A stretch of 64,000 bases of DNA, taken from Candidatus Nanoarchaeia archaeon. GTDB lineage: Archaea; Nanobdellota; Nanobdellia; SCGC-AAA011-G17; JACPNG01. Below the pieces are notes generated by a model, which was given only the letters and a program-made list of their open reading frames with translations, was not told the DNA's origin and made no database searches. Location of the stretch: positions 277,804 through 341,803 of the forward strand of contig JAQTMY010000001.1 in NCBI GenBank assembly GCA_028714095.1, in the 5' to 3' direction. Position numbers and translations under genes: made by a program. Positions 7,698 to 52,794 of this stretch are shown here, one piece after another; position 1 is the first letter of the stretch, and each line of letters starts with the position of its first letter.

Positions 7698-7748
7698 AAA
7701 TCCACTAAAAGAAAAACTATTTAAAAACCTTTCCTGTATCCTATATTT

Positions 7749-9471: not shown

Positions 9472-9596
9472 AAAGAATACAAAAGCTAAGGGATTTATAA
9501 AATTAGTGGAAAGAAATGTGCCTTATTTTACTGGAGAATCTGAATAGTAAAAAGAAAGGTTTTTATGTTCTAAACTTAATAATTTATTAAATCAAA

Positions 9597-16300: not shown

Positions 16301-19300
16301 TCCTTAAGATAGCTTGCTGACTCTTTCATTGATATATCATCCTTGGTGCATAATAACCCATCAGAACCAACATTCATTAGACTAATACTGGATGCACTCC
16401 CATCGGCTGCATATTTTAAAACCTTTAAGTAATTTCCGTCTTTGTAAGGGATGCAGTAGGGTTTTCCATCAGAGTAAAATTCTGCTTTTGCATTTGCAGC
16501 ATAGTCGCTCCTCTTCCCGCTTTCCTGCACAATATCAACTACCAAATAACATTCGCTATCTTTTTTAAATAACTGACCGCTCCCGATTATTTTCTTTGCG
16601 TCCTTAGAAATATCATCTTCGTTTATAGGAATTAATCCTTTTATTTCCTCAAATTTGACTGGATTTCCTTTTTCATCTTTTTTAAGAACATACCCTACAG
16701 CAGTCTTTTTATCCTTGCTCATTGTAACAGTGGATAAAATATTATTTATTTCAGCACATCCACCATTATTTTCTGTTAATCCTTTCCACTCTTTTTGTCT
16801 TTGTTCAATGCTCTTTGATTTTTGAAGTTCAAGATTTTGTATTGCAATCTTGTAAAGTTTTTCTTTTTCTGCTTTGTCCTCTATGTTGCTGTCCTTGAAT
16901 AATTTTTCAGTTTCTTTGTAAGCAGAATTTTTCTCTTCAAGGCTTTTGATTAAAGCTGTTTTCTCCTCTGCTATTGTTTTAAAGTATCCTTCCTCTTTCT
17001 TATCAAGCCCATCGGGTTTATTGTTGAGTATTGAACTTAAGATTAAATACTGCTTGACATCTTTTGAATCAACAATAAACTCTTTGCCATCTTTATTAAA
17101 ATCTTTTATTTCTTTTTCCAGTTCCTGATAGGCCAGACTCTCATATAATTTTCCGTCCTTAAGCTGGTCGTTAAAGTCATCAACTTTGGTATCAACCTCG
17201 TCAATTATTGATTCTGCAAATTCTCCAGTCTCCATTAAACATTCATCATAACTCTGATAAAATTCCCCAATTTTCCCTGCAGATTCTAAACTTACTTTTG
17301 TAATGCTGTTTGCCTGGCAGAAATCTTTCAGTCCCTGTATCTCTTCATACCCATTCATGACTATGCTTCTTGCATTTGCCTTGTTTCCTATCAAGAAATT
17401 CTTTGCTGTGATGAATGCAAATGTTGCTCCGCATCCAATCGTCCAGCCCTTTACAATATCCTCTGTTGTGTTTATTATTCCATCTAATGTTTTTATTGTG
17501 GAGTCAAGATTTCCTATATGATTGTCTAATTCTTCAGTTGTAAAATTAATTAATTTTATCCCTTTATCAATTGGAATTCTTACATTAAACTCGCTTGTAC
17601 TGTAAACCTTTGCTCTCCCAGGTATTATTGTTATCTGGGCAGCCTTTAATGATTCTACTTTTTTTAATTCAACCTCTATCTTCTTGCCGGTCTTTGAAGT
17701 TATTTCTTGTTTCTTTTCTATCTCTAATTTTATATTTTCCCCATCCGCTTCATCAGGGTATTTATGTTCCTTTAATTTTTCAGAATTTTTATTGTAATTG
17801 GAATCTTCATTAAGTTTGCTTGCAAGCAAATTTCTTACTGCAAGAACTCCTTCTACATAACTTGTGTCTGCAGTATCTCCACATCCTAATCCATTATAAG
17901 CTCTTAATGCCCTTTCCCATCCAGTATAACCTGCATATTGTTTTTGATATTCAGCATTTGCACAATAACTTTTTACCTTGCTCTCATAATTACTCCCTTC
18001 ATTATACTCGTCGTATTTTTTCTTTAAGAATTCAATCCCAATTCTTATGTTTTCATTAGGATCAAATCTTACATCAAGGTCTTTTGTCCCCTCTTCATCT
18101 TTAATCTCATCCAGCTCAGCTAATTGAGCAAGGACTTTTTCTTTAGTACCTTCATCTTTAATATTAAATGCACAGGTGCTTTCTTGATTCCCTAGGTCTT
18201 TATAGAGCTTAGCATTACTATCAACTTCTTTTACAGTTCCAGGCATAAGTTGCATTAATCCTATTGCCCCACAATATTCTTTGTTTAATTTTGAGATTAA
18301 GCTAGGATAAAATCCGCTCTCATAAATTATTAAAGCTTTAACCAATAAAGGATCTATATCTTTTTCTTTAGCATATTCTAAAATTTTTTCATCATACTTG
18401 TTTTGATAAGTTTCAGCTTGAACCCCAATCCTTTTGAGATCTCCACTCTTAGCATTGGTCTTGATATCCTCAATTTTCAATAGACCCGGTCCTTTTATTT
18501 CCTCACCCTTGGAGACAGTTACATCATCCTCATTAATGTCTATTATTTTATATCCAGTATTCTTTAATGCTTCATTAATCTTATAATCAGATGTATCATC
18601 TCCAACTCTAACGCTTGCAGATGCTCCCTGATGTTTTTTGATTTCCTTAACTTCAATGATTGCTTCTTCTGAACCAAGCTTTATATTTTCAGATGAAGAA
18701 CTTATTCCCGCAGAAGCCAAGGTCAGGTAGGTGCTGTATTTATCAAGATTGGTAGTATCCTTTATGTTTCCCAGCTCGTCTAAAATCCTGCTTCTGAATG
18801 AGTTGAAATCGCTGTCAGCGTTAGCTAGTTTAGCTTTAGTCATTAAGTCCGCATAAGCCTCAAGGATCTTGCCTGTATAAATATCATATTCTGAACTTGA
18901 TCCAGAGACTAACTCCCTTGCTTTTTTGAAATTAGTTACTGCTGCACAATCAAGCTTAAATGCAAAATCACTATTAATATCCACTTTCTCGTCTTCTATA
19001 TTCTTGCAGGGATCTTCAGTATTATAATTTGTTGTACTCTTGCTTATTTCCAAATTTATTGTTCCACTGTCCTTAAAGTTGGTTAATTTAACCTCACCAG
19101 AACCATCATCTTCTTTCTCAATTTTTTCAACATACCAGTCTGTCCCGGGTATGTAGTTTGATTCAAACACCTCTACAATATCTATTTCCTTATTTTTGTA
19201 AATCTGGAACGTTGCACTTTTGCTTAAGGAATTAACAATGCCATCTAATCTTACTTTTATTATATCAACTCCACTGCTCCCCAATAATCCGCTTATCCCG

Positions 19301-20226
19301 CTTAAAGAAATCTGATTTGAGGTTTGCCCGACTTTTATTTTTTGCAGGCCTCCAACCGGAGTTAATGTATAATCATAGACCTGTATTGTTGCACTATCAC
19401 TGTCAAGGCTGTCTAGTCTTACATAATATTCTCCATCTAAGAATGATTCCTGGCTTATTGAGTTATAGCCTTCTGCAAAAGAGATAGTTCCTGTGTCTGT
19501 TTGTCCACTCACCCCCTCTTTTAATTTTGTTAGAATATTTTGTACAGCCTCAAAAAGAGTTCTGGATTCTCTTGTTGTTCCTCCAGTAAATTCATTTGCA
19601 GCTTTTTGATAAATCACCTTTGTTAATCTTCCATAGTTCAAGCTCCTGTCTGTGCTGAACTCAATCCTTGCACTTAAGTTTAAGTCAATTTCTTCAGGAA
19701 TCTGGTCTTCGTTGTCAAATCTTTTGATCTCAACTAAAATAATCCCTAGATTATCAAGATCTTTTTGGTCCATTGTGCCTAAAATTGTTTTAACAGGTGC
19801 TAATGGATCCTTGTAATAACTTTTTGGAGGATAATAGGAAATACCCTGGACATAAGGATTGGAGGTGATTGGGGTAACTACAATATTATTTATTGAAGGT
19901 ATTCCTATAGTAGGTTCTCCAGTTGAACTTTGTTCCCCTAAGAAACTTCCCAAGGTATTTCCTCCCAAATAGATGAAAACAGGAACTTCCCCTTTAGTTA
20001 ACAGATTACTTTGTAAAACTGTTGGATCTACTTGTTTTGGATATACACTAATTGCCTCTCCAAGATCCTCATAGAAATTAATCCCGCTTAAGATTGTATC
20101 ACTGCTCGCATATCTTGATAATGCGCTTGTTGTTCTAGTTGTTGTCGGTGTTCTTGCAGCCTCAACAATAGGGATATTGCTTACTAGGAAAATTACAATC
20201 ATTGCTATTGCAATTATTTTCTTCAT
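13378..20226 (-). CDS. Giant secreted protein (2,282 aa) with lytic transglycosylase (SLT/GH23) region
   Basis: Uninterrupted 6.8-kb ORF. Sec signal MKKIIAIAMIVIFLVSNIPIVEA. SLT motifs IIYESGF (Glu636, codon 18319-18321), GLMQLMPGT and RAYNGLG. Cys-dense block at about residues 1290-1400. Confidence 0.8.
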   Translation of the reverse strand: MKKIIAIAMIVIFLVSNIPIVEAARTPTTTRTTSALSRYASSDTILSGINFYEDLGEAISVYPKQVDPTVLQSNLLTKGEVPVFIYLGGNTLGSFLGEQSSTGEPTIGIPSINNIVVTPITSNPYVQGISYYPPKSYYKDPLAPVKTILGTMDQKDLDNLGIILVEIKRFDNEDQIPEEIDLNLSARIEFSTDRSLNYGRLTKVIYQKAANEFTGGTTRESRTLFEAVQNILTKLKEGVSGQTDTGTISFAEGYNSISQESFLDGEYYVRLDSLDSDSATIQVYDYTLTPVGGLQKIKVGQTSNQISLSGISGLLGSSGVDIIKVRLDGIVNSLSKSATFQIYKNKEIDIVEVFESNYIPGTDWYVEKIEKEDDGSGEVKLTNFKDSGTINLEISKSTTNYNTEDPCKNIEDEKVDINSDFAFKLDCAAVTNFKKARELVSGSSSEYDIYTGKILEAYADLMTKAKLANADSDFNSFRSRILDELGNIKDTTNLDKYSTYLTLASAGISSSSENIKLGSEEAIIEVKEIKKHQGASASVRVGDDTSDYKINEALKNTGYKIIDINEDDVTVSKGEEIKGPGLLKIEDIKTNAKSGDLKRIGVQAETYQNKYDEKILEYAKEKDIDPLLVKALIIYESGFYPSLISKLNKEYCGAIGLMQLMPGTVKEVDSNAKLYKDLGNQESTCAFNIKDEGTKEKVLAQLAELDEIKDEEGTKDLDVRFDPNENIRIGIEFLKKKYDEYNEGSNYESKVKSYCANAEYQKQYAGYTGWERALRAYNGLGCGDTADTSYVEGVLAVRNLLASKLNEDSNYNKNSEKLKEHKYPDEADGENIKLEIEKKQEITSKTGKKIEVELKKVESLKAAQITIIPGRAKVYSTSEFNVRIPIDKGIKLINFTTEELDNHIGNLDSTIKTLDGIINTTEDIVKGWTIGCGATFAFITAKNFLIGNKANARSIVMNGYEEIQGLKDFCQANSITKVSLESAGKIGEFYQSYDECLMETGEFAESIIDEVDTKVDDFNDQLKDGKLYESLAYQELEKEIKDFNKDGKEFIVDSKDVKQYLILSSILNNKPDGLDKKEEGYFKTIAEEKTALIKSLEEKNSAYKETEKLFKDSNIEDKAEKEKLYKIAIQNLELQKSKSIEQRQKEWKGLTENNGGCAEINNILSTVTMSKDKKTAVGYVLKKDEKGNPVKFEEIKGLIPINEDDISKDAKKIIGSGQLFKKDSECYLVVDIVQESGKRSDYAANAKAEFYSDGKPYCIPYKDGNYLKVLKYAADGSASSISLMNVGSDGLLCTKDDISMKESASYLKEVEPAQLYKYKSFVDSFKCDDQGTVKIDKKVFECSYNAANRDTNKALGHCTDSMSVSDCKALFNICDPIVCPVSRFNAGGTWYVKDVVRSGIIGSIVLPQGSGDILPVCATGVLAGFKNIRSIFQSGKDCLTTQKEEGKSVGICDKIQSIYVCDVFWKEAGGAAKFVQNLFNGNVFSGSSIEGGGEYLQFSSSYENALKSVEFFTSEYGNLVDNSFKAKKLEQIKMEFCKGFVSGSIPNLGEFMTKLVNPRDPSQFIATMSSKPYSEKFGTLSYNVFFHIYAGTTQDISGSDKIGYRVYLRDSKTGRKLFVTYGDQGSTSENKDQIEYGGYITKNVDIVAGEGFNEVCIELNEVTECGFGRVTTDYGLNQLQDNAVTEEVTKNINSEEECIPELKESTGETIASTIGISSTTDSIVRVCSVEDPDGNSNKDYWRNVGSCGKDSSGVALGYCWLDTRSFSLQDLENYGNVSVYLSEAQNKYEEDLINKGIILSKEEREKKTEEIKAATTIEELKTILAGVNDQNLRSKGYGRAGEIYLEAGLAKEDYLTEGDHSKKEESEKAAEINAEIKGGAEGTPQAPAAVTKEPGLYILDNIIKGEKVAQLVLEKDALSLGINRIVFRVSSQKDGFDEQISDIQISSTKLEVFGQTLVANQGNNKQYTMVINDEKGKYKNSKADDIKVTVKTYGEVNGVQQKNGEYSKNVEASTKCELEGINILDDEKEYKQYIIKGAQPKLSTATGVTKLLENNLWAEIESGGCKPDGDVEGMRVGVSLIDRKMGTIIKNINTQIKWDSHKIEIPLPSNIKYGEDYRLRVSLLNYPEEDDKDITLVMEKACQITETYWARDKAGKQKIGELDRDNLETDSNDEDLARFYLIIKTTDGCETDELWATVIPDNCKNIVGIGQSTSAQLAACLSEESTIKINSNLFVKTFKLNKNLLMGGFVKTTCGVIEGYKKTDYPRKTDFCDEDLMSLGVK

Positions 20227-22136
20227 ACTAACTCCGGATATTCAAAAAACATACTATTTGTATATTCGTTAAATTCATCTGTGAATTTGGATGCATCTTC
20301 GTAAAACAAATCTGAATCATCATATATTGCATACAAAAGGATTTTATTAGATCCATTTAATTGATCTCTTGATAAACTAAACTCAAATTCCCCTCCGCCT
20401 ATTAGATTTTGTTTAATCTTCTGCTCAGGGATGATATTTTCTACGCATTGACTTTTTGTTTGTCCTATCAAACCTAAAATTCCATCAGGTACATCAACGC
20501 ATTTTACAATTGTCCTTTCTGGTATTGTTATTGTTTTTCCTTCTTCATCAATAATATAAGATCTAACCTTGTAAGTTCCTGGAATAATTTTTAATATCCC
20601 TTCCTTGTTGCTTACTATCGTATTATAATTATCACTTTTAAATTCAAAGAACACATTTTCATTTTCAACCTTTCTTATCGCTCCTGTATTCTTATTAATT
20701 AATCTAACTTCATAACCTAAATTATAATAAGGCTCCAGATAAATAACAGCCTCATCCTCTTTTGTTGTTGATAAAATCTTGTTTCCTACCCCAAATTCGT
20801 TTTCTGCAGTAAGATACCCATTTACACATCCAGGGAAATATCCGTCAAATACCCCAGAACTTTCACCGATATAGCAGTTGCTAAACCCGCAATTATAAGA
20901 AAGCTTGGCAGGAGCTTCTTCATTCGTTTTAATATCAATAGTTCTTATTCTCACTAATTGAGTTTTGGAATTGCATATTTTATTATTGAACATTGAGATA
21001 TTATTATTGCTTAATGTATCCTTTCTTGGCTGGTTTTTCTCTATAACAACCATTGTTGCAAACTGGAATATATCCTTATCAGAATTTAGTGTAAATAGAA
21101 CAGGATATCTTATGTTATAGGCAAACTGATATTCATTTATGCAGAACCCCCCAGGCAATATATTATTACTTGTTCCTGAAAAACCCTGAGCAACAAGTAT
21201 CTCTCCTTCATTTGGTGTAACCTCTGTCTCAAATGGCCAGGATTGAAGATATCTTAAGTTGATGTTTATATCATAACTTTTCTTTAAAGCTCTCCATTCA
21301 AAGTATTTTTCAGTATTTGCATACCTAGTCCCTATAATCTTTATGTTTGGGATGTTTGTTTCTACAATTGCTTTTAGTTTATTATTTACCTCTTCAGTCA
21401 TCCATACTTTTGCTCCGCAGCTAAATTCAGTTCCAGAGTAAGGGATATCATCATAAACAGTTAACATGTCAATTGTTTTTTCCTCCAGAAAATAGTCAGT
21501 ATTTTCCTGCTCTAGTATCTGGACAGCTATTTTATATAATTCTCCAAAATCAGATTCAAGAACAGAACTAAAATCCTCTATCTTGAATTCTTTATCAGCC
21601 CTTTTTATTGTGGTTGGCATATTTAATCCAGTTCCAATCTCATTATTTTCTATGCTTATTTTAACCTCTTTTTCCCCGGTTTTGATGTTGTATCCTGAAA
21701 ATCCACTGAAATTATTTAAACATAAATCTAAATTTGATTTAACATAAATTCCCAGGTTTTTTTCTATCTCTCCAAGGCTTGGATACTGTAACTTATCTAC
21801 ATTGTTTGCTTTCCTGTAGTACCAGTAAGGAACTTCCAGATCTCCGAATGATAGTTTATTTGAGACTTTGTTGAAATCTGATATAGGAATGTTATCATCT
21901 TCTACATCAAGATACCCTCCCTGTAACCCCATCAGTTGGCTTCCTGAGAAAGTTACCTGCTGTAAGCAGCTCTCAACAAAATTTTTTACACTCTCTATCT
22001 CTTCACCTTCTTTCTCCCCAGTCAGAATCTCATTGCTTTTGTTTAACATTACTTCCCGGAAGGCAATGAATGCTCCAAGTACTACAACAATTATTATTCC
22101 TATTATTACAAATAAACTGACCTGACCTCTTTTCAT
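20223..22136 (-). CDS. Large extracellular protein with pilin-like (class III) signal peptide
   Basis: N-terminus MKRGQVSLFVIIGIIIVVVLGAF. ATGA overlaps on both sides. Its N-terminal ~170 aa are paralogous to ORF 55332-56018. Confidence 0.6.
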   Translation of the reverse strand: MKRGQVSLFVIIGIIIVVVLGAFIAFREVMLNKSNEILTGEKEGEEIESVKNFVESCLQQVTFSGSQLMGLQGGYLDVEDDNIPISDFNKVSNKLSFGDLEVPYWYYRKANNVDKLQYPSLGEIEKNLGIYVKSNLDLCLNNFSGFSGYNIKTGEKEVKISIENNEIGTGLNMPTTIKRADKEFKIEDFSSVLESDFGELYKIAVQILEQENTDYFLEEKTIDMLTVYDDIPYSGTEFSCGAKVWMTEEVNNKLKAIVETNIPNIKIIGTRYANTEKYFEWRALKKSYDININLRYLQSWPFETEVTPNEGEILVAQGFSGTSNNILPGGFCINEYQFAYNIRYPVLFTLNSDKDIFQFATMVVIEKNQPRKDTLSNNNISMFNNKICNSKTQLVRIRTIDIKTNEEAPAKLSYNCGFSNCYIGESSGVFDGYFPGCVNGYLTAENEFGVGNKILSTTKEDEAVIYLEPYYNLGYEVRLINKNTGAIRKVENENVFFEFKSDNYNTIVSNKEGILKIIPGTYKVRSYIIDEEGKTITIPERTIVKCVDVPDGILGLIGQTKSQCVENIIPEQKIKQNLIGGGEFEFSLSRDQLNGSNKILLYAIYDDSDLFYEDASKFTDEFNEYTNSMFFEYPELV

Positions 22137-23206: not shown

Positions 23207-24976
23207 TTAAATCTTTGCATGCAGGATTTCTAATCCTCTTCTGGTTATTCTTAATTCTTTCTTCCACCCTTTGTCATGCTTGATTGTTTCAGTTTTTATT
23301 AATCCTAAATCTTCAAGTTTTTTCTTTATGGCATTCCCTCTTCTCACACTAATATTAAATAATTCATAAACCTTTGAAATATTAAATCCCTCACTTTTTG
23401 ATACAAATTCCAGGAATTTTTTATCCTCACTTTCAAGATCAAATTCCTGTTTTTTAATCTTAACTTGCTCTTCTAGAAATTCTCTTGGAGCAGCAATTCC
23501 TGAAGCTTTAAATGCTTCATCTATATTTTCTACCTCTTCATCAATTTCCTTGTCAACTCTTTCCTTAACATAACCTTTTTTCTCCTCGTCCTTAAGAACT
23601 CTAGTCCCCATCCTTTCTTTTAGTTCATCATCTGTCACAACCTCATCCTTTAAGTGGACTAATGGGGTTTTTATCATAAATGGGCTTGTATGTCTTTCAG
23701 ATAATTTTACCAAGGCCTCTCCGACCATTAACATTGAGAAATAATCTTTGTGTTCTCTTAACTGCATAATTCCCGATATCTGTTCAAGGTCATCAGGCAG
23801 TACCTGCTGAAAAGCAATATTGCATGCACTATTTCCAGCTACAACCTCGCTTAATTTAGAGATATGCTGGTCTAAACAGATTAATCCAATACCATATTCT
23901 CTTACCTCTCTGTATAATACATCTGTGGCACTTTCTTTAATGAAATTTGGTTTATCCTTAAGGAATATGTTGTGGGCTTCATCAATTAAAATTGCCTGTG
24001 TAAATTCTCCTCTTGATGAATTCTCATTTGTTTTCTTATATTTGTATAAATAACTTAGGACAAACTCACAGAAGAACTTTTTCTGAGAACTGTTTAATGA
24101 ATGAAGTTCAAACAAAAGCTTGTCTCCAAAATAATCTTCAACCTTAACACTGTCTCTTCCTTTATATCCGATGACTTCCCCGAAGTCTCCAAAAGTTAAT
24201 GCGTGTGCAATTCTTAAAGCAGAAACTACCCATTCACTTTCCCTGTTTCTTATTTTCATTTCTTCTTCCTTAATTTCTAGTCTATCTTTTATCTGATGCC
24301 AAGTTGGATAATTATCAGAACCCTCATAAACTCCAAACTCCCTGAAAGCTTCATCTAACGTCTCTACCAGTATTTTATGTACTCCATAACTTGCAAAGAA
24401 ACTTTCAGTAATCATATCAACCAATAAGCTAATCCATTCTTTGTCAGGCACCCCTTTTGGTGGCCTGTTGATGTTTATCCTAAAGTTATTGTTTATTTTT
24501 GAATTACCTATTGTATAAACTTTAATCGTATTGTCTATTAAAATTAAGGACCTGAAACTTTTTTTCCAGTCAAAAATCCAGAATGGTTTTTTGTTTCTGA
24601 TTAAATTTCCAAGAAGTATGAATGCAAAATTAGTTTTACCAGATCCACTCATCCCACTCACACATATATGCCTTGGCCAGTCCCTATCTCTCAATCCAAA
24701 TGGATAATAATCTTTCTCAGCATAAGATATCATTCCTAGTGTATATGGTCCTCCAATAATGTCTTTTTGAGGGGGTTCAAGAAGAATTTTTTGGCTGAGC
24801 ATACTCTGGTTAAGATATTTGTGATATAATGCACTAATTGCCTGTTCTACCTCAAATTGTTCCTCTCCTCTTTCAGAGAGTCTGTATCTTAGATATAGTG
24901 CATCGATCTTTTTGCCAAAAACCGGCCTAAGCTTTCTGCACATTTCCTCAATAGTTAAGTCTCTTTCAAAAGCCAT
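23207..24976 (-). CDS. HerA/FtsK-like (DUF87-type) P-loop ATPase with C-terminal winged helix
   Basis: Walker A VSGMSGSGKTNFAF, FDWKKSF, Walker B AILIDEAHNIF. C-terminal ~70 aa are wHTH-like (ISKVYELFNISVRRGNAIKKKLEDLGLIK). Confidence 0.6.
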   Translation of the reverse strand: MAFERDLTIEEMCRKLRPVFGKKIDALYLRYRLSERGEEQFEVEQAISALYHKYLNQSMLSQKILLEPPQKDIIGGPYTLGMISYAEKDYYPFGLRDRDWPRHICVSGMSGSGKTNFAFILLGNLIRNKKPFWIFDWKKSFRSLILIDNTIKVYTIGNSKINNNFRININRPPKGVPDKEWISLLVDMITESFFASYGVHKILVETLDEAFREFGVYEGSDNYPTWHQIKDRLEIKEEEMKIRNRESEWVVSALRIAHALTFGDFGEVIGYKGRDSVKVEDYFGDKLLFELHSLNSSQKKFFCEFVLSYLYKYKKTNENSSRGEFTQAILIDEAHNIFLKDKPNFIKESATDVLYREVREYGIGLICLDQHISKLSEVVAGNSACNIAFQQVLPDDLEQISGIMQLREHKDYFSMLMVGEALVKLSERHTSPFMIKTPLVHLKDEVVTDDELKERMGTRVLKDEEKKGYVKERVDKEIDEEVENIDEAFKASGIAAPREFLEEQVKIKKQEFDLESEDKKFLEFVSKSEGFNISKVYELFNISVRRGNAIKKKLEDLGLIKTETIKHDKGWKKELRITRRGLEILHAKI

Positions 24977-29137: not shown

Positions 29138-29194
29138 CCCCTTATATTAAGTATAAGAATTATATAAAAATATCTATCAAACCATAAATTAGGA

Positions 29195-29295
29195 TAGCCC
29201 CGCCAGGATTCGAACCTGGGTCTCCGGAGCCAAGGTCCGGAATGATTGGCCACTACATTCCGCAGAAATATTAAATGTATTTCTTCTACGGGGCT
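29195..29295 (-). tRNA. tRNA-Gln(UUG)-like with ~28-nt non-canonical intron in the D-arm region
   Basis: Hand fold: acceptor AGCCCCG/CGGGGCT, anticodon stem CCGGA/TCCGG, loop CCTTGGC, T-arm CCAGG-TTCGAAT-CCTGG. An extra segment after position ~9/10 contains the hairpin AGAAATA/TATTTCT. Confidence 0.6.
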
Positions 29296-30743: not shown

Positions 30744-31232
30744 ATGCAAAAAAGAGGTCAGATCTCAGAGGTTTTTATCTGGATTGCAGCAGCAATCATC
30801 ATGGGTTTAATTTTATACTTTGGAGTTAAAACTGCATTTAGGCTTCAAAATACAGGCAACCAAGTAGCCCTAAATAAAGAAATAGAGGACTTTAAGAGTG
30901 AGGTTGAAAAATATTATTACTTAGATAAGGGCTCTTCCAAAAAAATAACACTTAATTTCCCTTCAGAAATAACTAATATTTGTTTCTCTAATGGTAATGC
31001 TGCAACCAAAAACAAGGATATAGAGCAGGGGATAGATTTTATAGTTAAGGAAGAGGCTAAAAAACCAGATGGAAATAATATGTTTTTAATACCTTTAGAT
31101 TCTTATTCAAATACAGGGTTTTATATTCCTTATCTTAAACACGAAGGAGCCAATTTATTATGTTTTGAAAACAATAAAAATTTGTTTATTATTTCTAAAG
31201 GCGATCACGTAGATATTAAGGAGACTATATAA
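30744..31232 (+). CDS. Pilin-like (class III signal peptide) protein
   Basis: MQKRGQISEVFIWIAAAIIMGLILYF. Shares PSEITNICFS / PSTIDKICFA and the N-terminal region with ORF 2575-3663. Confidence 0.6.
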   Translation: MQKRGQISEVFIWIAAAIIMGLILYFGVKTAFRLQNTGNQVALNKEIEDFKSEVEKYYYLDKGSSKKITLNFPSEITNICFSNGNAATKNKDIEQGIDFIVKEEAKKPDGNNMFLIPLDSYSNTGFYIPYLKHEGANLLCFENNKNLFIISKGDHVDIKETI

Positions 31233-32019: not shown

Positions 32020-33354
32020 TTAAAATTTAACCTTACCTTTAAATTTCTTCATTATCTTTTCTGGGTTGTTTCCCTTGAACATCTTAAGCATCTTCTTGCT
32101 CTGTCTGTATTGTTTTAACAAATCTCTTACGTCGCTGATGTTTAATCCAGAGCCTTTAGCTATCCTGTCAATTCTCTCAGAAGTTAAAGTTTCAGGATCC
32201 TCTAATTCTCCCTTAGTCATGGACTGCATTATAAACTTCCATTTTTTTAGTTTCTCTTCCTGGACGTCCAGCATGTCTTTAGGTATGTTGACATTTGAAA
32301 AACCAGGAATCATGTCCATTATCTTGTTTAATGGCCCCAACTTTTTCATGCCTTCAAGTTGTTCATACAAATCAAGGAAATTAAAATCACCTTTCAGGAA
32401 TTTCTTCCCCAAGTCTTTTGTTTTTTCCTCATCTAACTCTACATTCACTTTTTCAAGTAAAGCTTCTATATCCCCCATTCCAAGTAATCTTGAAACAAAA
32501 CCTTTTGGATTAAATGATTCTAAAGCATCAACTTTTTCTCCCACTCCAATAAATTTAATCTTGGCCCCTGTAGTGCTGCAAGCAACTAAAGCTCCACCGC
32601 CTTTTGCAGTTCCATCAAGTTTAGTTATTATAATCCCTGTTATGTTTACAGATTTATGGAATTGTTCAGCTTGAACCTGAGCCGCCTGTCCGATATCTGC
32701 ACTTAAAACCAATAATCTTTCATCAGCCTTGATATAATTGTTTAATTCCTCAATTTCTTTTATTAAATCGCTACTTAGTGCATCCCTCCCAGCAGTATCA
32801 ATCAATAGAATATCATAGTCCTTGTATTTTTTCTCAAATTCTTTATAGATTTTTAATGCATCTTTTTCTTTTTTGTCTATGAAACAGTCAATATTAATTG
32901 AATCTGAGATTTGTTTTAGCTGCTCTGGTGCAGCAGGCCTGTGAACATCCAAACCAATAGCAGCAACTTTCTTTCCTCTCTTGGAATAATATTTTGCCAG
33001 TTTTCCTATTGTGGTTGTTTTTCCACTTCCAAATAAACCAACCATCATAATTTTGAAGGGTTTTTTATTAACATTAATTTCTTCTTTCTCTTCCCCTAGA
33101 AATTTAACTAATTCTTCATAAACTACTTTAATCAAGAATTCTCTAGGATTGATCTGCTTTGTAATTTCATCTATAGCTCTTTTCTTAATATTATTTGTTA
33201 AATCTAAGACTAATTTTACATTAACATCAGCTTTAATCAAGGCTTTCTGGATGTCTTTTACTAAATCTTCAATTAGTCTTTTATCTACAAAAGAGCTTCT
33301 TGCTATCTTCCTTAAAGTTTCCTTTAAGCTTTCTCCAAGTTTTTCCAAAACCAT
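32020..33354 (-). CDS. srp54: Signal recognition particle protein SRP54
   Basis: GLFGSGKTTTIGKLA, DTAGR, and a Met-rich C-terminal M domain. Confidence 0.92.
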   Translation of the reverse strand: MVLEKLGESLKETLRKIARSSFVDKRLIEDLVKDIQKALIKADVNVKLVLDLTNNIKKRAIDEITKQINPREFLIKVVYEELVKFLGEEKEEINVNKKPFKIMMVGLFGSGKTTTIGKLAKYYSKRGKKVAAIGLDVHRPAAPEQLKQISDSINIDCFIDKKEKDALKIYKEFEKKYKDYDILLIDTAGRDALSSDLIKEIEELNNYIKADERLLVLSADIGQAAQVQAEQFHKSVNITGIIITKLDGTAKGGGALVACSTTGAKIKFIGVGEKVDALESFNPKGFVSRLLGMGDIEALLEKVNVELDEEKTKDLGKKFLKGDFNFLDLYEQLEGMKKLGPLNKIMDMIPGFSNVNIPKDMLDVQEEKLKKWKFIMQSMTKGELEDPETLTSERIDRIAKGSGLNISDVRDLLKQYRQSKKMLKMFKGNNPEKIMKKFKGKVKF

Positions 33355-33375
33355 ACTTTTGGTTATTAATGTTTA

Positions 33376-33383
33376 TTTATAAG
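33376..33383 (-). promoter_or_regulatory. TATA box TTTATAAG (srp54)
   Basis: Lies 22-29 nt upstream of the ATG at 33354. Confidence 0.4.
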
Positions 33384-33420
33384 TGTAGTTAGTATATTGA
33401 TGTATTTACTTGGAGAGAAT

Positions 33421-33453
33421 AAAAAAAGCCTCCTCTCCGAAGAGGGGAGGCTT
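33421..33453 (-). terminator. Bacterial-type intrinsic terminator
   Basis: On the minus strand: 12-bp GC-rich stem (33426-37 / 33442-53, one G-U pair), TTCG tetraloop, then a run of 7-8 T. Lies 26 nt after the stop at 33479. Confidence 0.6.
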
Positions 33454-33478
33454 GCCATAGATAGTTGTAAGGCGGTAG

Positions 33479-34027
33479 TTAGAAGTTCAGGGTAAGTCCT
33501 GCTCCTCCGTAAAATCCGCCGGCGTCATAATCTGCAATTTTCACGACCTTATAACTTCCCTCGGTTGTTAACAAGAAGAAATCGAATATCCTGACAGATA
33601 TCCTTCCCCCGAATTCAAATCCAAGATTATTGTCCTTGAAAGTGTTAAACGGGTTTTTTTCTTGTATCCATGCTTCAACGACTCCCGCGAGAAGTGAGAT
33701 GTCGATCGTTGCTTCCGGATCGAAATGATATGCCACGATGAGACTCAGATATTTATGACTCATCGTTGTTTTTTCGTTCAAGAAGATTGTTTCGCCATGT
33801 AGATCTTCCATAAAAGACCCTGCGGCGTACAGGCCGAAATGTTTGAGTACAAATACCTCAAGATTGACATTGTAAGTCAACCCTCCTGTGTCGTAATTGT
33901 AGATGCTTGTGCTTTTTTCATCGTTGTTTTTTTTCAACCCAACTGATCCGCCGATACGGAGTGTGTCGGCTGAAACCGCGAACGCGAAAATCGAGATTAA
34001 CAAAATAGTGATTGTTATTTTTTTCAT
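33479..34027 (-). CDS. Outer-membrane-protein-like small beta-barrel (OmpX/OmpW-size)
   Basis: Signal MKKITITILLISIFAFAVSA, alternating amphipathic strands, C-terminal AGLTLNF ending in Phe (OMP beta-signal). Confidence 0.6.
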   Translation of the reverse strand: MKKITITILLISIFAFAVSADTLRIGGSVGLKKNNDEKSTSIYNYDTGGLTYNVNLEVFVLKHFGLYAAGSFMEDLHGETIFLNEKTTMSHKYLSLIVAYHFDPEATIDISLLAGVVEAWIQEKNPFNTFKDNNLGFEFGGRISVRIFDFFLLTTEGSYKVVKIADYDAGGFYGGAGLTLNF

Positions 34028-34060
34028 TTTTTACCTTCACTTTTTATTTTGAGGTTTTCA

Positions 34061-36067
34061 TCATCGAACTTGCGCTTGCACTGGACCGCCAGCAGGAACT
34101 CTGATAATCTTGCCTTTGTAGTCGTATAATGCAATCGCCCTGTAGTAATATACTCCGTTCCGATCTAGGGTTTGAGTGTCTCGATACACTCCCGGCGAAT
34201 ATTGGGTCGCGTTTATTTGAATTTCATGACCTGAGGAATCTGAACGATAGAATTCATATCCTCTGAATATTATTCCCGGGAGGCTTCCGGCTGGGCAGGG
34301 TTGAATAAACCCATAAACCCATGCGGACAATCGGCTCGACTCACTCTTCAACCAGGTATCGTAGGATAAACATTCACCGAACCAGATGAAGTTTACTGTT
34401 GTGGTAGACGAAAGTTTGCAGAGATTTGGGGTAGTAACCGTAATCGTGGCATTTCCAGGAGTTCCGCTTTCGAAATTGCGCTGGTAATTTCCATAAATGC
34501 CTGTTGTCCAATTGCCGTTATCGATGCTGAATACAATATTCGTCGGTTTGCTGTAAAGTGCCCCGTTCTGATAGATTTCTGTATTTGCAACGCCTATTTC
34601 GTATCCGTTCGCCAAATACTCGGCTTTGTCGGTCGTTAATTTTAATTCAAACGCCGAGCAACAATCCTCCGCTATCGCGTAAGTTGTGGCACTTGCACTA
34701 TCGTAACCGTCATTGACAGTTATTTCCGCAGTATACTTCCCGGCTTTGGAGGGTTTAACCTTAAGTTCGTTTGTGGTTTCTGCAGTTGCAAGCCCATTAA
34801 CCTTCCAGCTGAATACAAGAGGGTCTCCGTCTGGATCTGAAGCTATTGCAGTAAATGTAAATTCGCCCCCAGATAAGCAGCTCTTATCCGGATTCACCCC
34901 GAGGCTTACGAGTGGCGGTTGGTTCTTAACTGTAATCGTTTTTTTTACAGTAGAACTTTCCCCACAGGTATCTTTAACGGTTTCTGTTATTGTGAAGGTT
35001 CCGACAGAATTGTATATGTATGTCGGATTCTGGACAGTCGAATTGCCTGTTCCATCCCCAAAGTCCCAAAGATAGGAGGTAATGTTGCCATCAATATCTG
35101 TAGACTGGTCACTGAAAGTTACCGTTTCTCCGCGTTTGCTTTGGGTTGGCGAGAATGAGAACCCACCAATTGGAGGATGATTACCGAAGCACTTACTCCT
35201 GACTTCGATACTGTGTTTCATATTGGGAGATTCACAGCCATCGTATTCTGTAAGCGTTACCGTAAAGACCCCCACGGCATTGAAGGTATGCGAAGGATCT
35301 TTGACCGTCGAATTGCCTGTTCCATCCCCAAATTCCCAATTATGAGTCATCACTTGGATTTTTCCGTCATCTGTGGAAAGATTTGTAAATACAACCGTAT
35401 CGCCTTCAGTTATTGGGCTGGAAGGGGAAAACGTGAAATCGACATTTGGTGTTTGGTTCCCGGAGCAGGGGTCAGGATTACAGTTGGTACACAACTGTCC
35501 TTCACCAACGGGATTAACCGGATTATTTATGAAATTGTAATTCCCGTTGTTACTGTAGAATCTCATATGCGGTCTTAGGGCCTCATTTGCAACTGCAGTA
35601 TGGTAGATTTCAACCTCAAGTATGACCGTCCCAGCAGCGTAATTACCGGGGGGGATTGTAAAATTTCCTACCCCTTGATTTGGTCCGTGAGTTGGAGGAG
35701 TTATAACTGTCCCAATGCCCGGGGTGACAATTCCTGCCAATACAGTATAGGTTTTCAGTGGGGTTCCGTGGCTATCCGGTTTAATATAAACCGAAACATA
35801 CTGACCGATATTGGTGCTTTTTTCGAACGACCAACGCACCTTAAAGTGCGTTGCGTCGATGTTGCAATAACATCCATCGATATCCACGTTTAAACACTGA
35901 ACCTTGGGATTGTTATCTCCGCCTTGATAATTTCCCTTCTCTACAGAGGAACTTGGTGTTGGCTCAGAGAATGGATTTTCATTCTCTTTATCACAACATG
36001 TGAAAATCATCGAAAGAGAAAGAGCGGAGACAATAATCAGACTGTAGAAAACAGTTTTTTTAACCAT
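34061..36067 (-). CDS. Lipoprotein with tandem PKD domains
   Basis: ATG at 36067 is preceded by AAGGAG. Lipobox-like LSMIFTC. Two PKD cores: W[ED]FGDGTGNSTV[KQ][DN]P. A third Ig-like repeat carries DPDGDPL. Confidence 0.7.
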   Translation of the reverse strand: MVKKTVFYSLIIVSALSLSMIFTCCDKENENPFSEPTPSSSVEKGNYQGGDNNPKVQCLNVDIDGCYCNIDATHFKVRWSFEKSTNIGQYVSVYIKPDSHGTPLKTYTVLAGIVTPGIGTVITPPTHGPNQGVGNFTIPPGNYAAGTVILEVEIYHTAVANEALRPHMRFYSNNGNYNFINNPVNPVGEGQLCTNCNPDPCSGNQTPNVDFTFSPSSPITEGDTVVFTNLSTDDGKIQVMTHNWEFGDGTGNSTVKDPSHTFNAVGVFTVTLTEYDGCESPNMKHSIEVRSKCFGNHPPIGGFSFSPTQSKRGETVTFSDQSTDIDGNITSYLWDFGDGTGNSTVQNPTYIYNSVGTFTITETVKDTCGESSTVKKTITVKNQPPLVSLGVNPDKSCLSGGEFTFTAIASDPDGDPLVFSWKVNGLATAETTNELKVKPSKAGKYTAEITVNDGYDSASATTYAIAEDCCSAFELKLTTDKAEYLANGYEIGVANTEIYQNGALYSKPTNIVFSIDNGNWTTGIYGNYQRNFESGTPGNATITVTTPNLCKLSSTTTVNFIWFGECLSYDTWLKSESSRLSAWVYGFIQPCPAGSLPGIIFRGYEFYRSDSSGHEIQINATQYSPGVYRDTQTLDRNGVYYYRAIALYDYKGKIIRVPAGGPVQAQVR

Positions 36068-36104
36068 TTTAGATACTCCTTTCAATAGAGAGAAATGGTT
36101 TTCT

Positions 36105-36119
36105 ATTCTGAGTCAGAAT
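36105..36119. promoter_or_regulatory. 15-nt perfect palindrome ATTCTGAGTCAGAAT
   Basis: Lies 38-52 nt upstream of the PKD lipoprotein ATG; a candidate operator. Confidence 0.3.
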
Positions 36120-36301
36120 TTTATAATCTAAATTACCTTTTAATATCTCCTTTTGTTAAGGTAATTCGGGTTATCCTTTAAGTTTAGATTTCCACATAGA
36201 AATCTAAGTATTGATGAATTATAAAATTCCGGCTTTTAAATACCGGAGAATAGGTAAGTAATTTATTTATAAACTTTGCTATTACTGAGTTAGGACAAAA
36301 A

Positions 36302-37111
36302 TTAGAGCTTTTGGTTGTTTTTCTTGTCTTCTCCAATACATATCTGGTAGAAATCGCATTCTCCATTCCCCCACTTACATAAAGCCCCCTGGCATTTAGG
36401 ATAATCCTTAACATCATCACTCTGAGTTAATTCATGGATTTTTTTAACCTCAGATTTAGCATAATCAATCAAGGCTTTATCAACATCAATAAACTCCTCT
36501 CCAAATCTTAGAAAATTAATCCCTGCCTTTGAAGGCATTTTTCCATATTTCTCTAAATATAATAAAGAATAAAGAGCTAGCTGTAATTTATATTCAGGAG
36601 TTATATATTCCTTATTTGAAGTTTTATAATCAACAATAATCCCTTCTTCATCATAAACCGCATCAATATACCCTCTTATCTTGTATTTATTGCTAATGAC
36701 TTCTACCTCTGTTTTTGGTTTTAATTTATTAAAACTATTAATTAAATCATCAGGATTTAGTTTATCTAATAAGTCATTAACCCAGCTCCCGATCATGTCC
36801 CTTGTTTCTTCAAAATAAAAACCAATTTTTTCCTTGAAAGGAACAGATTCAAAAATATCTGTTTTATTGTCAACCCAGTGTTTTTTTAATAATTCCAAAG
36901 CAAGCATCTTTAGTTCAAACTCAAAATTCTCTTTTGAAATCTGGTTAATGTCAACTTTGAAAAAATCCTCTAAAACACTATGGACAATGTTCCCCCTAAC
37001 AAGATGTATTGATTTTTTTGTTGGAAATCCCTTGATGTATTGATAATAATACCTTCTAGGGCACTGTTTATACATGTTTATTGAACTGGCAGAATGATAT
37101 TCCCTAGGCAT
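36302..37111 (-). CDS. PD-(D/E)XK nuclease with Fe-S Cys cluster (Cas4/RecB-exonuclease family)
   Basis: N-terminal CPRRYYYQY. GYIDAVYDEEGIIVDYKTS nuclease core. C-terminal CQGALCKWGNGECDFYQIC. TATATAAA at 37133-40. Confidence 0.7.
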   Translation of the reverse strand: MPREYHSASSINMYKQCPRRYYYQYIKGFPTKKSIHLVRGNIVHSVLEDFFKVDINQISKENFEFELKMLALELLKKHWVDNKTDIFESVPFKEKIGFYFEETRDMIGSWVNDLLDKLNPDDLINSFNKLKPKTEVEVISNKYKIRGYIDAVYDEEGIIVDYKTSNKEYITPEYKLQLALYSLLYLEKYGKMPSKAGINFLRFGEEFIDVDKALIDYAKSEVKKIHELTQSDDVKDYPKCQGALCKWGNGECDFYQICIGEDKKNNQKL

Positions 37112-37168
37112 CTATCATAAAATTTTTAACGATATATAAATTTAAGTGTACTAAAAACAATATATTTT

Positions 37169-38299
37169 CTAAATTCCAATGCTTTTCATTAATTCTTCTT
37201 TATTAAACTCTTTTAAATTATCATAATTTTGGCCGGTTCCGTAATAAATTATTGGTTTTCCTGTTATGTATGAAACAGAAATTGCAGCCCCACCCTTTTC
37301 ATCAACATCTAACTTGCTTAGTATTATTGCATCAATCCCAATTGCTTCATTAAAATCTCTAACCTGTTCTATACAGTCATTTCCAGTAATAGATTCTCCA
37401 ACAAAAATCTTTAAATCAGGTTTAGAAATTCTTATTATTTTTTTCATCTCATCAATTAAATTTTTATTGCTGTGCAGTCTCCCTGCAGTATCAATCAAAA
37501 CAACATCTATCTTTTTGGATTCAGCATGTTTTATCCCATCATAGCAGACCGCTGCAGGATCTGCTCCATACTCCTGTTTTATTACTTTTATGCCTAATTT
37601 GTTTCCATGCTCTTCTAACTGTTGGATTGCTGCTGCCCTGAAAGTATCTGCAGCAACCAGAATACAACTTAAATTATTATCCTGTAATTTCTTTGCAATT
37701 TTTGCAATCGTTGTTGTTTTCCCGCTCCCATTTACGCCAACAAAGACAATAACAAAAGGTTTTTTTTCTTTAACCTTCTTTATTAAATCAAATTTGTTAT
37801 CTTCAAATAAACCTTCAATGCTTGACTTTAAGCTTTCAAGGATAGTCTCTTCAATCTTGCCTTTTTTTAATGGACTGTCAACCAGGTCTTTTTTTAAATC
37901 TTCTTTTATTTTTTCAATAACTTCTAAAGCTACATTACTTTCAAGCAAAGCTAATTCCAATTCATAAAATAATTCATCAAACTTTTCCTCATCAATCTTC
38001 TTTGTTGTTATGACTTCATGGAATTTTTTGAAGAAACCCTTTTTTTCCTTAAATTCTTCCTTTTCCTCAATAACTTCTGGTTTCTTTATCTCTCCCCTAA
38101 ATAATTCCTTTTCTTCTGTTTTCTCTTCAAAATCTCTTGTTTTTTTATGTTCTACTTTTTCTTCCTTGACTTCAACGATTTTTTCTTTTGGTTTTTCCTC
38201 TACCTTAACTTCTATTCTCTCTTCAGGAGCCTCTTCTTCCACTTTTTTAGAGAAGATTTTTGTTGCTTCCTTTATCTTTTCCTTTAAAAACTTAAACAT
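37169..38299 (-). CDS. ftsY: SRP receptor FtsY
   Basis: Acidic N-terminal region, GVNGSGKTTTIAKIA, DTAGR. Confidence 0.92.
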   Translation of the reverse strand: MFKFLKEKIKEATKIFSKKVEEEAPEERIEVKVEEKPKEKIVEVKEEKVEHKKTRDFEEKTEEKELFRGEIKKPEVIEEKEEFKEKKGFFKKFHEVITTKKIDEEKFDELFYELELALLESNVALEVIEKIKEDLKKDLVDSPLKKGKIEETILESLKSSIEGLFEDNKFDLIKKVKEKKPFVIVFVGVNGSGKTTTIAKIAKKLQDNNLSCILVAADTFRAAAIQQLEEHGNKLGIKVIKQEYGADPAAVCYDGIKHAESKKIDVVLIDTAGRLHSNKNLIDEMKKIIRISKPDLKIFVGESITGNDCIEQVRDFNEAIGIDAIILSKLDVDEKGGAAISVSYITGKPIIYYGTGQNYDNLKEFNKEELMKSIGI

Positions 38300-38320
38300 A
38301 GAATTAGCTAATAGCTTTAA

Positions 38321-38328
38321 TTTATAAA
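38321..38328 (-). promoter_or_regulatory. TATA box TTTATAAA (ftsY)
   Basis: Lies 22-29 nt upstream of the ATG at 38299. Confidence 0.45.
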
Positions 38329-38421
38329 CTTAGTGCCACCTTTATCTCATACTTTATCTAATCTGGACTCCGCGGTCCGATCCCCGTGGCCCATATTCTA
38401 GAAAAGATTATATACTAAAAA

Positions 38422-38610
38422 TTGGTGATTAATCGTATGGATAAAAATAATTTTAGTTTAATCAGATTTATAAGTGGGATTATATTTTGTTTAAGTAGTG
38501 CAATTTTAATGTTCTTAGGAAATCAAGATATTCCCATACCTGTTAAAATTAGTTTATTAATTGTAGGTATTGGTTTAATTTCATCCTCTAGATTTAGATT
38601 ATTAAAATAA
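38422..38610 (+). CDS. Small two-helix membrane protein (hypothetical)
   Basis: 62-aa ORF only. Confidence 0.3.
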   Translation: MVINRMDKNNFSLIRFISGIIFCLSSAILMFLGNQDIPIPVKISLLIVGIGLISSSRFRLLK

Positions 38611-51747: not shown

Positions 51748-51943
51748 ATCTATTATTAAGAAATTATTTGATAAACCAACAAAAAACAAAATTAAGAAAG
51801 CTGCAAAAATCACAGTTAGAGAGGCAAAGATCGTTGCCCCTAAAGCAAAAAAAGAAGTTGAAAAGATTTATCATTTTGGAAAGGATCATGCAAAAAAAAT
51901 AATCATAGAGATCAACAAAGAACCAGGGAAAAAGAAGAGATGA
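51731..51943 (+). CDS. Small Lys-rich protein (hypothetical)
   Basis: ORF overlapping the ends of both neighbours; composition-only evidence. Confidence 0.3.
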   Translation: MKKQIKSIIKKLFDKPTKNKIKKAAKITVREAKIVAPKAKKEVEKIYHFGKDHAKKIIIEINKEPGKKKR

Positions 51944-52794
51944 TGATTTTTTGGATACTAACCTTAATAGGATTAATCGGATTAGTTCTAGCTTCTTATT
52001 TTGATATTAAAACAAAGGAAGTCCCAAATATCATCAGTTTTTCAATGATTGCTCTTGGGTTAGGATTAAGATTGATTTATTCAATAATAACAAAGAATGA
52101 AATGTTTTTTAGGAACTCTTTGTTGATAGTTTCGGTATTTTTTATACTTGGCGGGATTTTGTATGTGTATAAAAAATGGGGGGGAGCAGACACAAAAATT
52201 CTTATGGCCCTGGGGGCTTTATTTTACCCATGGTCAACTCCTTACTTTTTAGTCTCATTTTTAATAATCTTTTTATTGGTTGCTTCTGTTTATGGTTTTA
52301 TCTGGGCAGCATATGTTTCAATAAAGCATAAGGAAGAATTCAAGAAAACTTTTGTTATAATATATAAAAAGAAAAAAACCCAGACAATAATATTATTTTT
52401 TGTTTTTCTGCTGCTTTTTGTTATTTCTCTGATCGTATCTGATATTTCCTTAAGGTTTGTTTTGATGTTGCTTGCAATCCTGTCATTGCTTTATCACTAT
52501 TTGTGGATATTTACCAAGGCTGTTGAAAAGTCCTGCATGGAAAAAACAGTTCCTGTTTCAAAACTTGTAGAAGGAGATTGGATTATTGGAGAAATTAAAA
52601 AAGGAAATAAAGTATTATATCCTAAAGATTTGCCACTTATCACAAAAAACCATATTAGTTTATTCAAGAAGTATGGAATTAAGGAAGTAAGAATAAGGGA
52701 GGGATTTGCTTTTATCCCGGTTTTCCTTATCACATTGGTAATAACTCTTTTCTTTGATAAGGTGTTCTTAACTTATGTAACTACCTTATTGTAG
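51940..52794 (+). CDS. A24-family prepilin/preflagellin peptidase (PibD/FlaK/EppA-like)
   Basis: Two catalytic Asp motifs in TM context: ASYFDIKTKEVPN and KKWGGADTKILMALG. C-terminal extension of about 90 aa. Confidence 0.75.
   Translation: MMIFWILTLIGLIGLVLASYFDIKTKEVPNIISFSMIALGLGLRLIYSIITKNEMFFRNSLLIVSVFFILGGILYVYKKWGGADTKILMALGALFYPWSTPYFLVSFLIIFLLVASVYGFIWAAYVSIKHKEEFKKTFVIIYKKKKTQTIILFFVFLLLFVISLIVSDISLRFVLMLLAILSLLYHYLWIFTKAVEKSCMEKTVPVSKLVEGDWIIGEIKKGNKVLYPKDLPLITKNHISLFKKYGIKEVRIREGFAFIPVFLITLVITLFFDKVFLTYVTTLL

Follow-up and report, generated by a model that had tools for sequence, protein, structure and literature searches.

Here we describe a two-gene surface module of bacterial ancestry, and the expression slot that holds it, in the genome of a Candidatus Nanoarchaeia archaeon (NCBI GenBank assembly GCA_028714095.1). 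The analysis covered 64,000 nucleotides (nt) of contig JAQTMY010000001.1, positions 277,804 to 341,803 of the forward strand; this whole stretch is referred to as the window, and coordinates are those of the window. On the minus strand the locus reads ftsY, a Cas4-like nuclease gene, ~190 nt of intergenic DNA, a gene for a 668-amino acid (aa) protein, a gene for a 182-aa protein, a hairpin with a T-run, and srp54 (Table 1). An earlier note, made from the letters of this DNA without database searches, had placed a bacterial cassette between srp54 and ftsY; both genes do flank it, but the nuclease gene separates it from ftsY. That gene, which scores under the cut-off of the cas4 model (59.7 against 65 bits), is also present in the related metagenome-assembled genome (MAG) STA_79, a 'Candidatus Nanoarchaeia' MAG designated L002 here (81% aa identity), and in a relative that lacks the cassette (L011; 50%).

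Primary analysis of base composition revealed that the two genes form the sole compositional island of the window. In 300-nt windows the GC content is 40-47% from ~33400 to 36000 and 26-35% in the flanks, and the 1-kb bins at 34-36 kb, with 43.7% and 44.7% GC, stand above every other bin of the 64 kb (38.2% or less). GC content at third codon positions (GC3) is 0.47 in the gene for the 182-aa protein and 0.43 in that for the 668-aa protein, against 0.19-0.30 in 13 host genes; since GC3 is raised by 0.15-0.25, and not only the values for first and second codon positions (GC1 and GC2), the shift is not merely a matter of amino acid composition. The island is likewise the most deviant 2.65-kb window of the 64 kb in tetranucleotide usage (L1 0.454; median 0.18, 95th percentile 0.245). 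Only two islands of at least +9% GC were found in 1.2 Mb of DNA from the window and its archaeal relatives, and both occupy the same slot, one in the window and the other in L002. The island is thus compositionally foreign, and the abrupt shift described in the earlier note is borne out by sliding-window GC, GC3 and the tetranucleotide signature, although the flanking genes measure 31-33% GC, not the 22-27% estimated there.

Table 1. Features of the island and its surroundings, in window coordinates
Feature	Position	Strand	Remarks
srp54	32020..33354	-	conserved host flank; Pfam SRP54, SRP_SPB, SRP54_N
57-nt conserved block	33374..33430	-	runs from the T-run to the srp54 TATA box (33374-33382); unique in the window
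Hairpin and T-run terminator	33421..33453	-	arms 33426-33437 and 33442-33453 (12 nt, 1 mismatch); loop TTCG; T-run 33421-33427
Compositional island	33458-36110	genes on -	two intact genes; 42-45% GC vs ~31%; GC3 0.43-0.47 vs 0.19-0.30
Barrel, 182 aa	33479..34027	-	Sec signal and predicted 8-stranded OmpA/OmpX-like transmembrane beta-barrel; ends GLTLNF
PKD/Ig-repeat surface protein, 668 aa, exported	34061..36067	-	signal peptide with lipobox-like IFTC; Pfam PKD_4, Big_9
Shine-Dalgarno-like AAGGAG	36076..36081	-	8 nt before the ATG of the PKD gene; read from sequence
Structured leader, nested hairpins, ~120 nt	36108..36234	-	L002 counterpart 7575-7780; window-L002 homology stops at its 3' side
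Archaeal TATA-like box TTTATAAATA	36264..36273	-	read from sequence; kept in L002
Cas4-like PD-(D/E)XK nuclease	36302..37111	-	host gene directly upstream of the slot; Pfam PDDEXK_1 E 1.1e-23
ftsY (receptor of the signal recognition particle)	37169..38299	-	conserved host flank; NCBIfam TIGR00064 313.9 bits (cut-off 260.7); Pfam SRP54 E 6.2e-73

To our knowledge, transmembrane beta-barrels of the outer-membrane protein (OMP) type are regarded as diagnostic of diderm bacteria and of the organelles descended from them, and no archaeon is known to encode or assemble such proteins. The 182-aa protein is nevertheless predicted to be an OmpA/OmpX-like 8-stranded barrel with a C-terminal Phe beta-signal. 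It begins with a Sec-type signal, MKKITITILLISIFAFAVSA followed by D, and ends in AGLTLNF, and the terminal G-L-T-L-N-F fits the bacterial beta-signal pattern. Given an alignment of 19 sequences, AlphaFold2 (AF2) returned a signal helix followed by eight long beta-hairpin strands, two of which are split by DSSP, with a predicted local distance difference test score (pLDDT) of 89.5 and a predicted template modelling score (pTM) of 0.79; from the single sequence the pLDDT was 36. The best Foldseek matches in the Protein Data Bank (PDB) were the OmpA transmembrane domain (9fzc_A, template modelling (TM) score 0.74, E 7e-9), Ail, OprF-N, OmpX, OmpW and NspA, every one an outer-membrane protein with 8 strands, with TM scores of 0.62-0.74, and a PDB profile search matched OprF-N (E 9.5e-5).

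The family of this protein emerged from distant homologues. Direct Pfam and NCBIfam scans gave no family, and nothing but the protein itself came back from a word-indexed search of 5.8 billion proteins. An exhaustive HMMER (phmmer) scan of 1.84 billion representatives returned P0122 (31% identity, E 1.6e-16), P0124 (E 2.7e-5) and P0125 (E 2.4e-4), together with a fourth, repetitive protein whose match looks false. P0124 and P0125 exceed the threshold for PF13505 (OMP_b-brl), and a follow-on profile search collected 18 proteins of 182-196 aa, in which PF13505 is found in 15 of the 16 besides the window protein and P0140. A hidden Markov model built from only the 16 PF13505-positive homologues matched the window protein over residues 2-165 with 62.7 bits.

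The 668-aa protein starts with MVKKTVFYSLIIVSALSLSMIFTCC. An N-terminal stretch of ~160 aa is unique to it, PKD and Big domains occupy about residues 200-470, and the C-terminal domain, likewise unique, contains Cys. Pfam PKD_4 (PF18911) matches in three stretches (E 4.5e-38; 129.6 bits, cut-off 27), and PF00801 scores 106.4 bits. The signal peptide ends in I-F-T-C(C), which departs from the lipobox consensus [LVI][ASTVI][GAS]C in having Phe at position -2 and Thr at position -1; neither Lgt nor Lsp was seen in the window, and the protein is possibly lipid-anchored. Database matches to the whole protein were domain-only, covering 22-55% of the query and confined to its middle, and their mixture of bacteria and archaea made them uninformative as a clue to origin. 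The N-terminal ~160 aa and the last 110 aa have no bacterial match in these searches. Nevertheless, residues 411-613 align to the partner protein of a bacterial barrel homologue (L088, E 2.5e-9) and residues 413-632 to that of another (L093), while the C-terminal 121 aa (residues 548-668) are 57% identical to a partner protein encoded in a second archaeal genome (L083, described below). At the level of the proteins, most of what the earlier note had read held up: the cleavable signal and the AGLTLNF ending of the smaller protein are both present, its outer-membrane-type 8-strand barrel, on which the note had made its case depend, is what structure prediction gave, and the tandem PKD cores and the AAGGAG ahead of the first gene were found. 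The lipobox fared less well, in that the IFTC motif is there but its residues depart from the canonical pattern.

The barrel and a PKD/Fn3 surface protein lie next to each other in five of six bacterial contexts, and in seven of eight when the two archaeal ones are counted. In L084-L086, L087 and L088 the gene for a PKD protein of 758-769 aa comes within 10-50 bp after that for a barrel homologue, the reverse of the gene order in the window; these loci have 43-44% GC and bacterial neighbours, namely a sigma-54 enhancer-binding protein, CapB/CapC and a radical-SAM enzyme. The window order is found in L093, where the gene for an SBBP/PKD protein of 603 aa lies 18 bp ahead of the barrel, and in L089/L090, where an Fn3-like partner precedes it by 10 bp. 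No partner gene lies beside the barrel in the available DNA of L091/L092, the former of which stops 83 bp past the barrel. The PF13505 family and the habit of sitting beside a PKD surface protein are thus both seen in bacterial contigs, in line with the bacterial character claimed in the earlier note, and the pair is a bacterial-type module. Additionally, the P0140 barrel and its Fn3-repeat partner (L089, 1380-4212) adjoin two transposase genes (Transposase_mut, DDE_Tnp_1), which hints that the pair can be mobile in bacteria.

The genome that carries the module is that of a Woesearchaeal (DPANN) archaeon. The window encodes TFIIB, ribosomal proteins S8e, S3Ae and S13/S15-N, aIF2-alpha, GINS51, a GAN-type DHH nuclease, PAC2, aRF1, RadA, a tRNA-intron endonuclease and TruD, and its SRP54 is 90% identical to that of L002 and 60-71% identical to those of ~80 Woesearchaeota/Nanoarchaeota MAGs. 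At least 44 of the 80 loci from relatives have ftsY upstream of srp54 and on its strand, at gaps of 5 bp to 7 kb and without such cargo, and the linkage is therefore ancestral; the archaeal host and conserved neighbourhood claimed in the earlier note are both upheld. The pair was found at the srp54 locus of none of the other 79 relatives.

Comparison with L002 defined the boundaries of the slot. The two sequences align through ftsY, the nuclease gene and the leader to 36111, and again from 33457 through the hairpin, the T-run and srp54. Between these points L002 carries (7810-9876) a different gene, encoding a 688-aa secreted ORFan (MDD5178369.1) with 46% GC and a GC3 of 0.475, for which no Pfam, NCBIfam or PDB relative was found. 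The elements of the slot are an archaeal TATA promoter, the structured leader (~120 nt) and, directly against the srp54 promoter, a hairpin/T-run terminator. The TATA-like box probably drives the slot, judging from its sequence. A TATA box of the TTTATAAAT type stands ~25-30 nt ahead of the ATG of most genes in the window, a spacing that suggests leaderless mRNAs. The aligned 5' flank (A3) has a mean column identity of 84% between window and L002, against 75-81% for the neighbouring coding regions (BLASTN). Its leader contains the inverted repeats I3 (36111-36127 / 36218-36234) and I4, and the consensus fold has 31 pairs, one of them compensatory. The leader motif is unique in the window and among 93 loci, and no Rfam family matched it; it may act as an RNA regulator or as a site of recombination.

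At the other end, the terminator hairpin folds with -18.1 kcal/mol (z -2.7) in the window and -20.7 kcal/mol (z -5.1) in L002, where it is retained with compensating pair changes behind an unrelated cargo; it therefore belongs to the host frame and not to a bacterial cassette. Hairpins with T-runs also follow host genes (31277-31256, 43811-43788, 36247-36228 and 30013-29995), the number of such sites (16, with 10.8 +/- 3.6 expected) not differing significantly from expectation. A resemblance of the hairpin to nse_sRNA in Rfam (27 bits against a gathering score of 75) was taken as chance. SD-like motifs stand at 12 of 49 host starts of open reading frames (ORFs) of at least 120 aa, or 13 of 51 with the cassette, mostly in genes inside operons. 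Because TATA and SD-like signals are widespread in host genes, neither is a bacterial mark. The 12-bp stem, TTCG loop and T-run of the earlier note are thus all present, but they are not part of the cassette.

A second archaeal genome is represented by two 1.4-kb contigs (L082/L083) from the samples JGI 3300035701 and SRR11719878, which contain the C-terminus of a partner protein (57% identical) followed by the P0122 barrel (31%), then a strong terminator of their own (-30.9 kcal/mol), the 57-nt block and a gene for TBP (Pfam E 1.1e-18). The block, at 1124-1180 in L083 and 1100-1156 in L082, is 91% identical to its window counterpart (BLASTN E 1e-17). This genome therefore has a diverged copy of the pair with the same flank block and a different next gene, and the block before TBP is either part of a mobile unit or a rearrangement breakpoint. 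The block is equally well conserved, at 91%, between the window and L002, whereas the cargo proteins of the window and L082/L083 share only the 31% and 57% given above. Both ORFs are intact in both archaeal versions, and GC3 is 0.43-0.56 across all three cargoes.

We lean, with moderate confidence, towards reading the island as an exchangeable two-gene surface cargo in a host-controlled expression slot of a Woesearchaeal genome. On the sequence comparisons, the site appears to be a slot with different cargo in different genomes and not the scene of a single insertion event. A GC3 of 0.43-0.56 in genomes with GC3 values of 0.2-0.3 argues against long vertical residence, and we infer repeated replacement. 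The cargo would be replaced by recombination through or next to the conserved flanks, of which homologous recombination through the flanks is the simplest form, and it would be drawn from a reservoir of ~45% GC outside the AT-rich host genomes, bacterial by family, whose donor lies outside the sampled sequences. No bacterial donor was found in 15 billion proteins, and the tetranucleotide correlations of the sampled bacterial loci (r 0.60-0.74) point to none of them.

Several observations weigh against this reading. The slot concept rests on two genomes and one 1.4-kb fragment, and scans of metagenomes with a 27-nt flank motif and with the C-terminal domain of the partner gave 0 matches and 0 confirmed matches, respectively, as did viral scans with the 3' and 5' motifs (0 matches); searches of phage DNA and plasmid proteins likewise gave no match. 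Past the PKD part, the alignment to the bacterial partners is weak, though in register (BLASTP E 5e-6; hhalign E 0.053), and Pfam's own PF13505 model does not match the 182-aa protein at E values up to 10. No BamA/Omp85 was found among the ORFs of at least 120 aa in the window, we know of no archaeon that assembles OMP-type barrels, and what the pair does is reached wholly by inference.

Among the alternatives, a dedicated site-specific capture system survives best, and it is live because homology breaks at the bases of hairpins on both sides and because the 57-nt block also precedes TBP, and not srp54, in L082/L083. Here the cargo would consist of mobile cassettes inserted beside hairpins by an integron-like or hairpin-guided process, with the 57-nt block travelling along or serving as the attachment site. 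Three different high-GC cargoes do abut that one block, and integrons have been reported in Archaea (PMC9668308). The expected machinery and marks are, however, missing from what was searched: no integrase, transposase or tyrosine recombinase occurs among the ORFs of at least 120 aa in the 64 kb, the cargo has no flanking direct repeats, target-site duplications or terminal repeats, there is no attC-like R/L box, the 3' element being a simple 12-bp hairpin without a GTTRRRY core, Rfam gives nothing above threshold, and the motif occurs once in the window and was not found in the viral and metagenome collections. Since homologous recombination explains the window and L002 equally well, we regard such a system as an improbable, if real, contender.

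The earlier note had proposed a recent acquisition from a diderm bacterium. The corresponding rival reading is a single insertion of a cassette with its own Shine-Dalgarno sequence and terminator, taken directly from such a bacterium and now a passenger without an adapted role. The unameliorated GC3, the deviant tetranucleotide signature, the bacterial family and gene pairing, and the absence of the pair from the srp54 loci of the other 79 relatives all fit such an event, and a recent direct transfer is possible. As to the origin of the homologues, the bacterial character of the family and of the pairing stands, but the nearest relatives of both genes reside in the second archaeal contig, and the best bacterial barrels are only 21-28% identical despite the search of 15 billion proteins. 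Furthermore, terminator, promoter and leader belong to the host and recur in L002, where they frame a different cargo, and both ORFs are intact in two archaeal versions. On balance a single recent insertion seems to us decidedly unlikely.

We give very little credence to the view that these are native archaeal surface genes whose high GC comes from their amino acid make-up or from a codon bias tied to expression. In its favour, the two cargo proteins are surface proteins rich in Gly, Thr and Pro, a host promoter serves the slot and the L002 cargo lacks a bacterial homologue, yet the rise extends to GC3, the barrel belongs to a bacterial OMP family with a bacterial pairing, and the genes are absent from the 79 other Woesearchaeal srp54 loci. 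Finally, an assembly or binning chimera, in which a bacterial fragment had been joined into an archaeal contig, is very unlikely and carries the least weight of all, because the abrupt composition steps at both edges, its one attraction, belong to a 2.65-kb insert within a 509-kb contig with archaeal genes on either side, a separate Logan per-run assembly (L001, SRR22315509, 5197 bp) is 100% identical to window 33307-38503 across both junctions, two more samples (L082/L083) join a homologous pair to an AT-rich archaeal flank with TBP, and a gene of high GC also occupies this site in L002, which comes from another study; as far as the assemblies show, the chimerism that the earlier note had been wary of is excluded.

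The conserved adjacency of the two genes in bacteria implies a joint function, in which the barrel would serve as a membrane-embedded dock for the PKD/Ig protein as the exposed adhesin. Both proteins carry Sec signals and lie behind a host promoter in the archaeon, where Sec would export them. Small 8-stranded barrels such as OmpA and OmpX fold into bilayers in vitro without the beta-barrel assembly machinery (BAM), which makes insertion without BAM conceivable; the membrane that the barrel enters might thus be that of the archaeon itself or the outer one of a diderm partner, and the pair would then mediate cell-cell contact. It may accordingly form a cell-contact module, possibly aimed at a diderm partner. 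A 2282-aa protein of the window (13378-20226, minus strand) has an SLT lytic-transglycosylase domain (E 1.1e-14), and Castelle et al. (PMC8204110) took giant murein-lytic proteins to hint at a possible episymbiotic life on bacteria for small-genome Woesearchaeota; together these make a role of the pair at the envelope of a bacterial partner, as suggested in the earlier note, plausible. Beside the SLT protein lie a 637-aa family-less ORF and a HerA/DUF87-type ATPase (20223-22136; 23207-24976). In its most extended form, which we offer as a speculation more probably wrong than right, a small-genome Woesearchaeote living on a diderm bacterium would use the captured barrel and adhesin together with the giant lytic transglycosylase as contact hardware. 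The barrel would insert free of BAM, and the slot, framed by hairpins and dedicated to the purpose, would take up foreign genes for surface proteins again and again. If so, the barrel would be the first of the OMP type to function in an archaeon, and the slot a new type of cargo-exchange site among archaea.

Other surface-related and incidental features were noted in the window. A 162-aa protein (30744-31232, plus strand) starts with MQKRGQISEVFIWIAAAIIMG, resembling a class III (pilin-like) signal of archaea, and a Peptidase_A24 prepilin peptidase is encoded 20 kb away (51940-52794, plus strand); from their sequences the two suggest a type IV pilus-like surface apparatus. An ORF at 2575-3663 (plus strand) with a match to Peptidase_M64 (IgA-peptidase-like, E 8e-14) may be another secreted, bacterial-type protein. 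ARAGORN placed a 79-nt tRNA-Gln(ttg) gene at 29192-29270 (minus strand), which Rfam matches weakly and over a short stretch (33.2 bits, model positions 6-65); this gene may have an intron or be atypical.

The protein family described here was known already; what is new is its archaeal setting and the slot. An intact barrel with a beta-signal is found with its bacterial partner gene in two archaeal genomes, under an archaeal promoter. If the pair is expressed, it bears on how DPANN archaea recognise and attach to their hosts, on whether some of those hosts are bacterial, and on whether small barrels function without BAM in vivo. In addition, the slot offers a compact and experimentally tractable case of targeted cargo turnover in reduced genomes.

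The individual components and the arrangement as a whole can be set beside several known systems. One counterpart of the module is the uncharacterised bacterial pair of an OMP_b-brl barrel with a PKD/beta-propeller/Fn3 protein (L084-L088, L093, L089/L090). The two share adjacency at a spacing of 10-50 bp, a homologous barrel, and a partner layout in which PKD, Ig-like and Fn3-like C-terminal parts are held in common. The N-terminal beta-propeller repeats of the bacterial partners, by contrast, are not in the window protein, which has a unique N-terminal region of its own and a Cys-rich C-terminal domain common only to L083. With the diderm barrels of PF13505 (the OmpA transmembrane domain, OmpX/Ail, OprF-N, NspA and OmpW) the window barrel shares its size, Sec signal, eight antiparallel strands and terminal G-x-x-hydrophobic-x-Phe; it differs from them in being encoded by an archaeon without a known BAM, in its low identity to the bacterial members and in having no periplasmic domain. 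A small outer-membrane barrel is likewise coupled to a surface adhesin in the Myxococcus gliding platform, in which the small barrels CglE and CglF reportedly hold the adhesin CglB, and in the TDE1717-type barrels of Treponema. The homologue P0124 has weak NCBIfam matches to TDE1717 (E 1e-5) and CglE (E 0.007), both far under the family cut-offs; there are no Glt genes, and the likeness is one of mechanism by analogy only.

As for the slot itself, replacement flexible genomic islands, in which the same locus holds non-homologous, surface-related cargo of atypical GC, have been described in bacteria and some archaea. Conserved flanks, unrelated cargo and atypical composition (44-46% GC in both the window and L002 cargoes) are shared with such islands, and position, flanks, non-homologous cargo and composition all agree with their definition, on two genomes only. 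The slot differs in being very small, with one or two genes, and in framing its cargo between a shared promoter and leader on one side and a terminator on the other. Integron cassettes resemble it in having promoterless ORF cargo behind a resident promoter, a 3' hairpin and a cross-domain flavour, but in the 64-kb window the slot has neither IntI nor attC architecture nor a cassette array.

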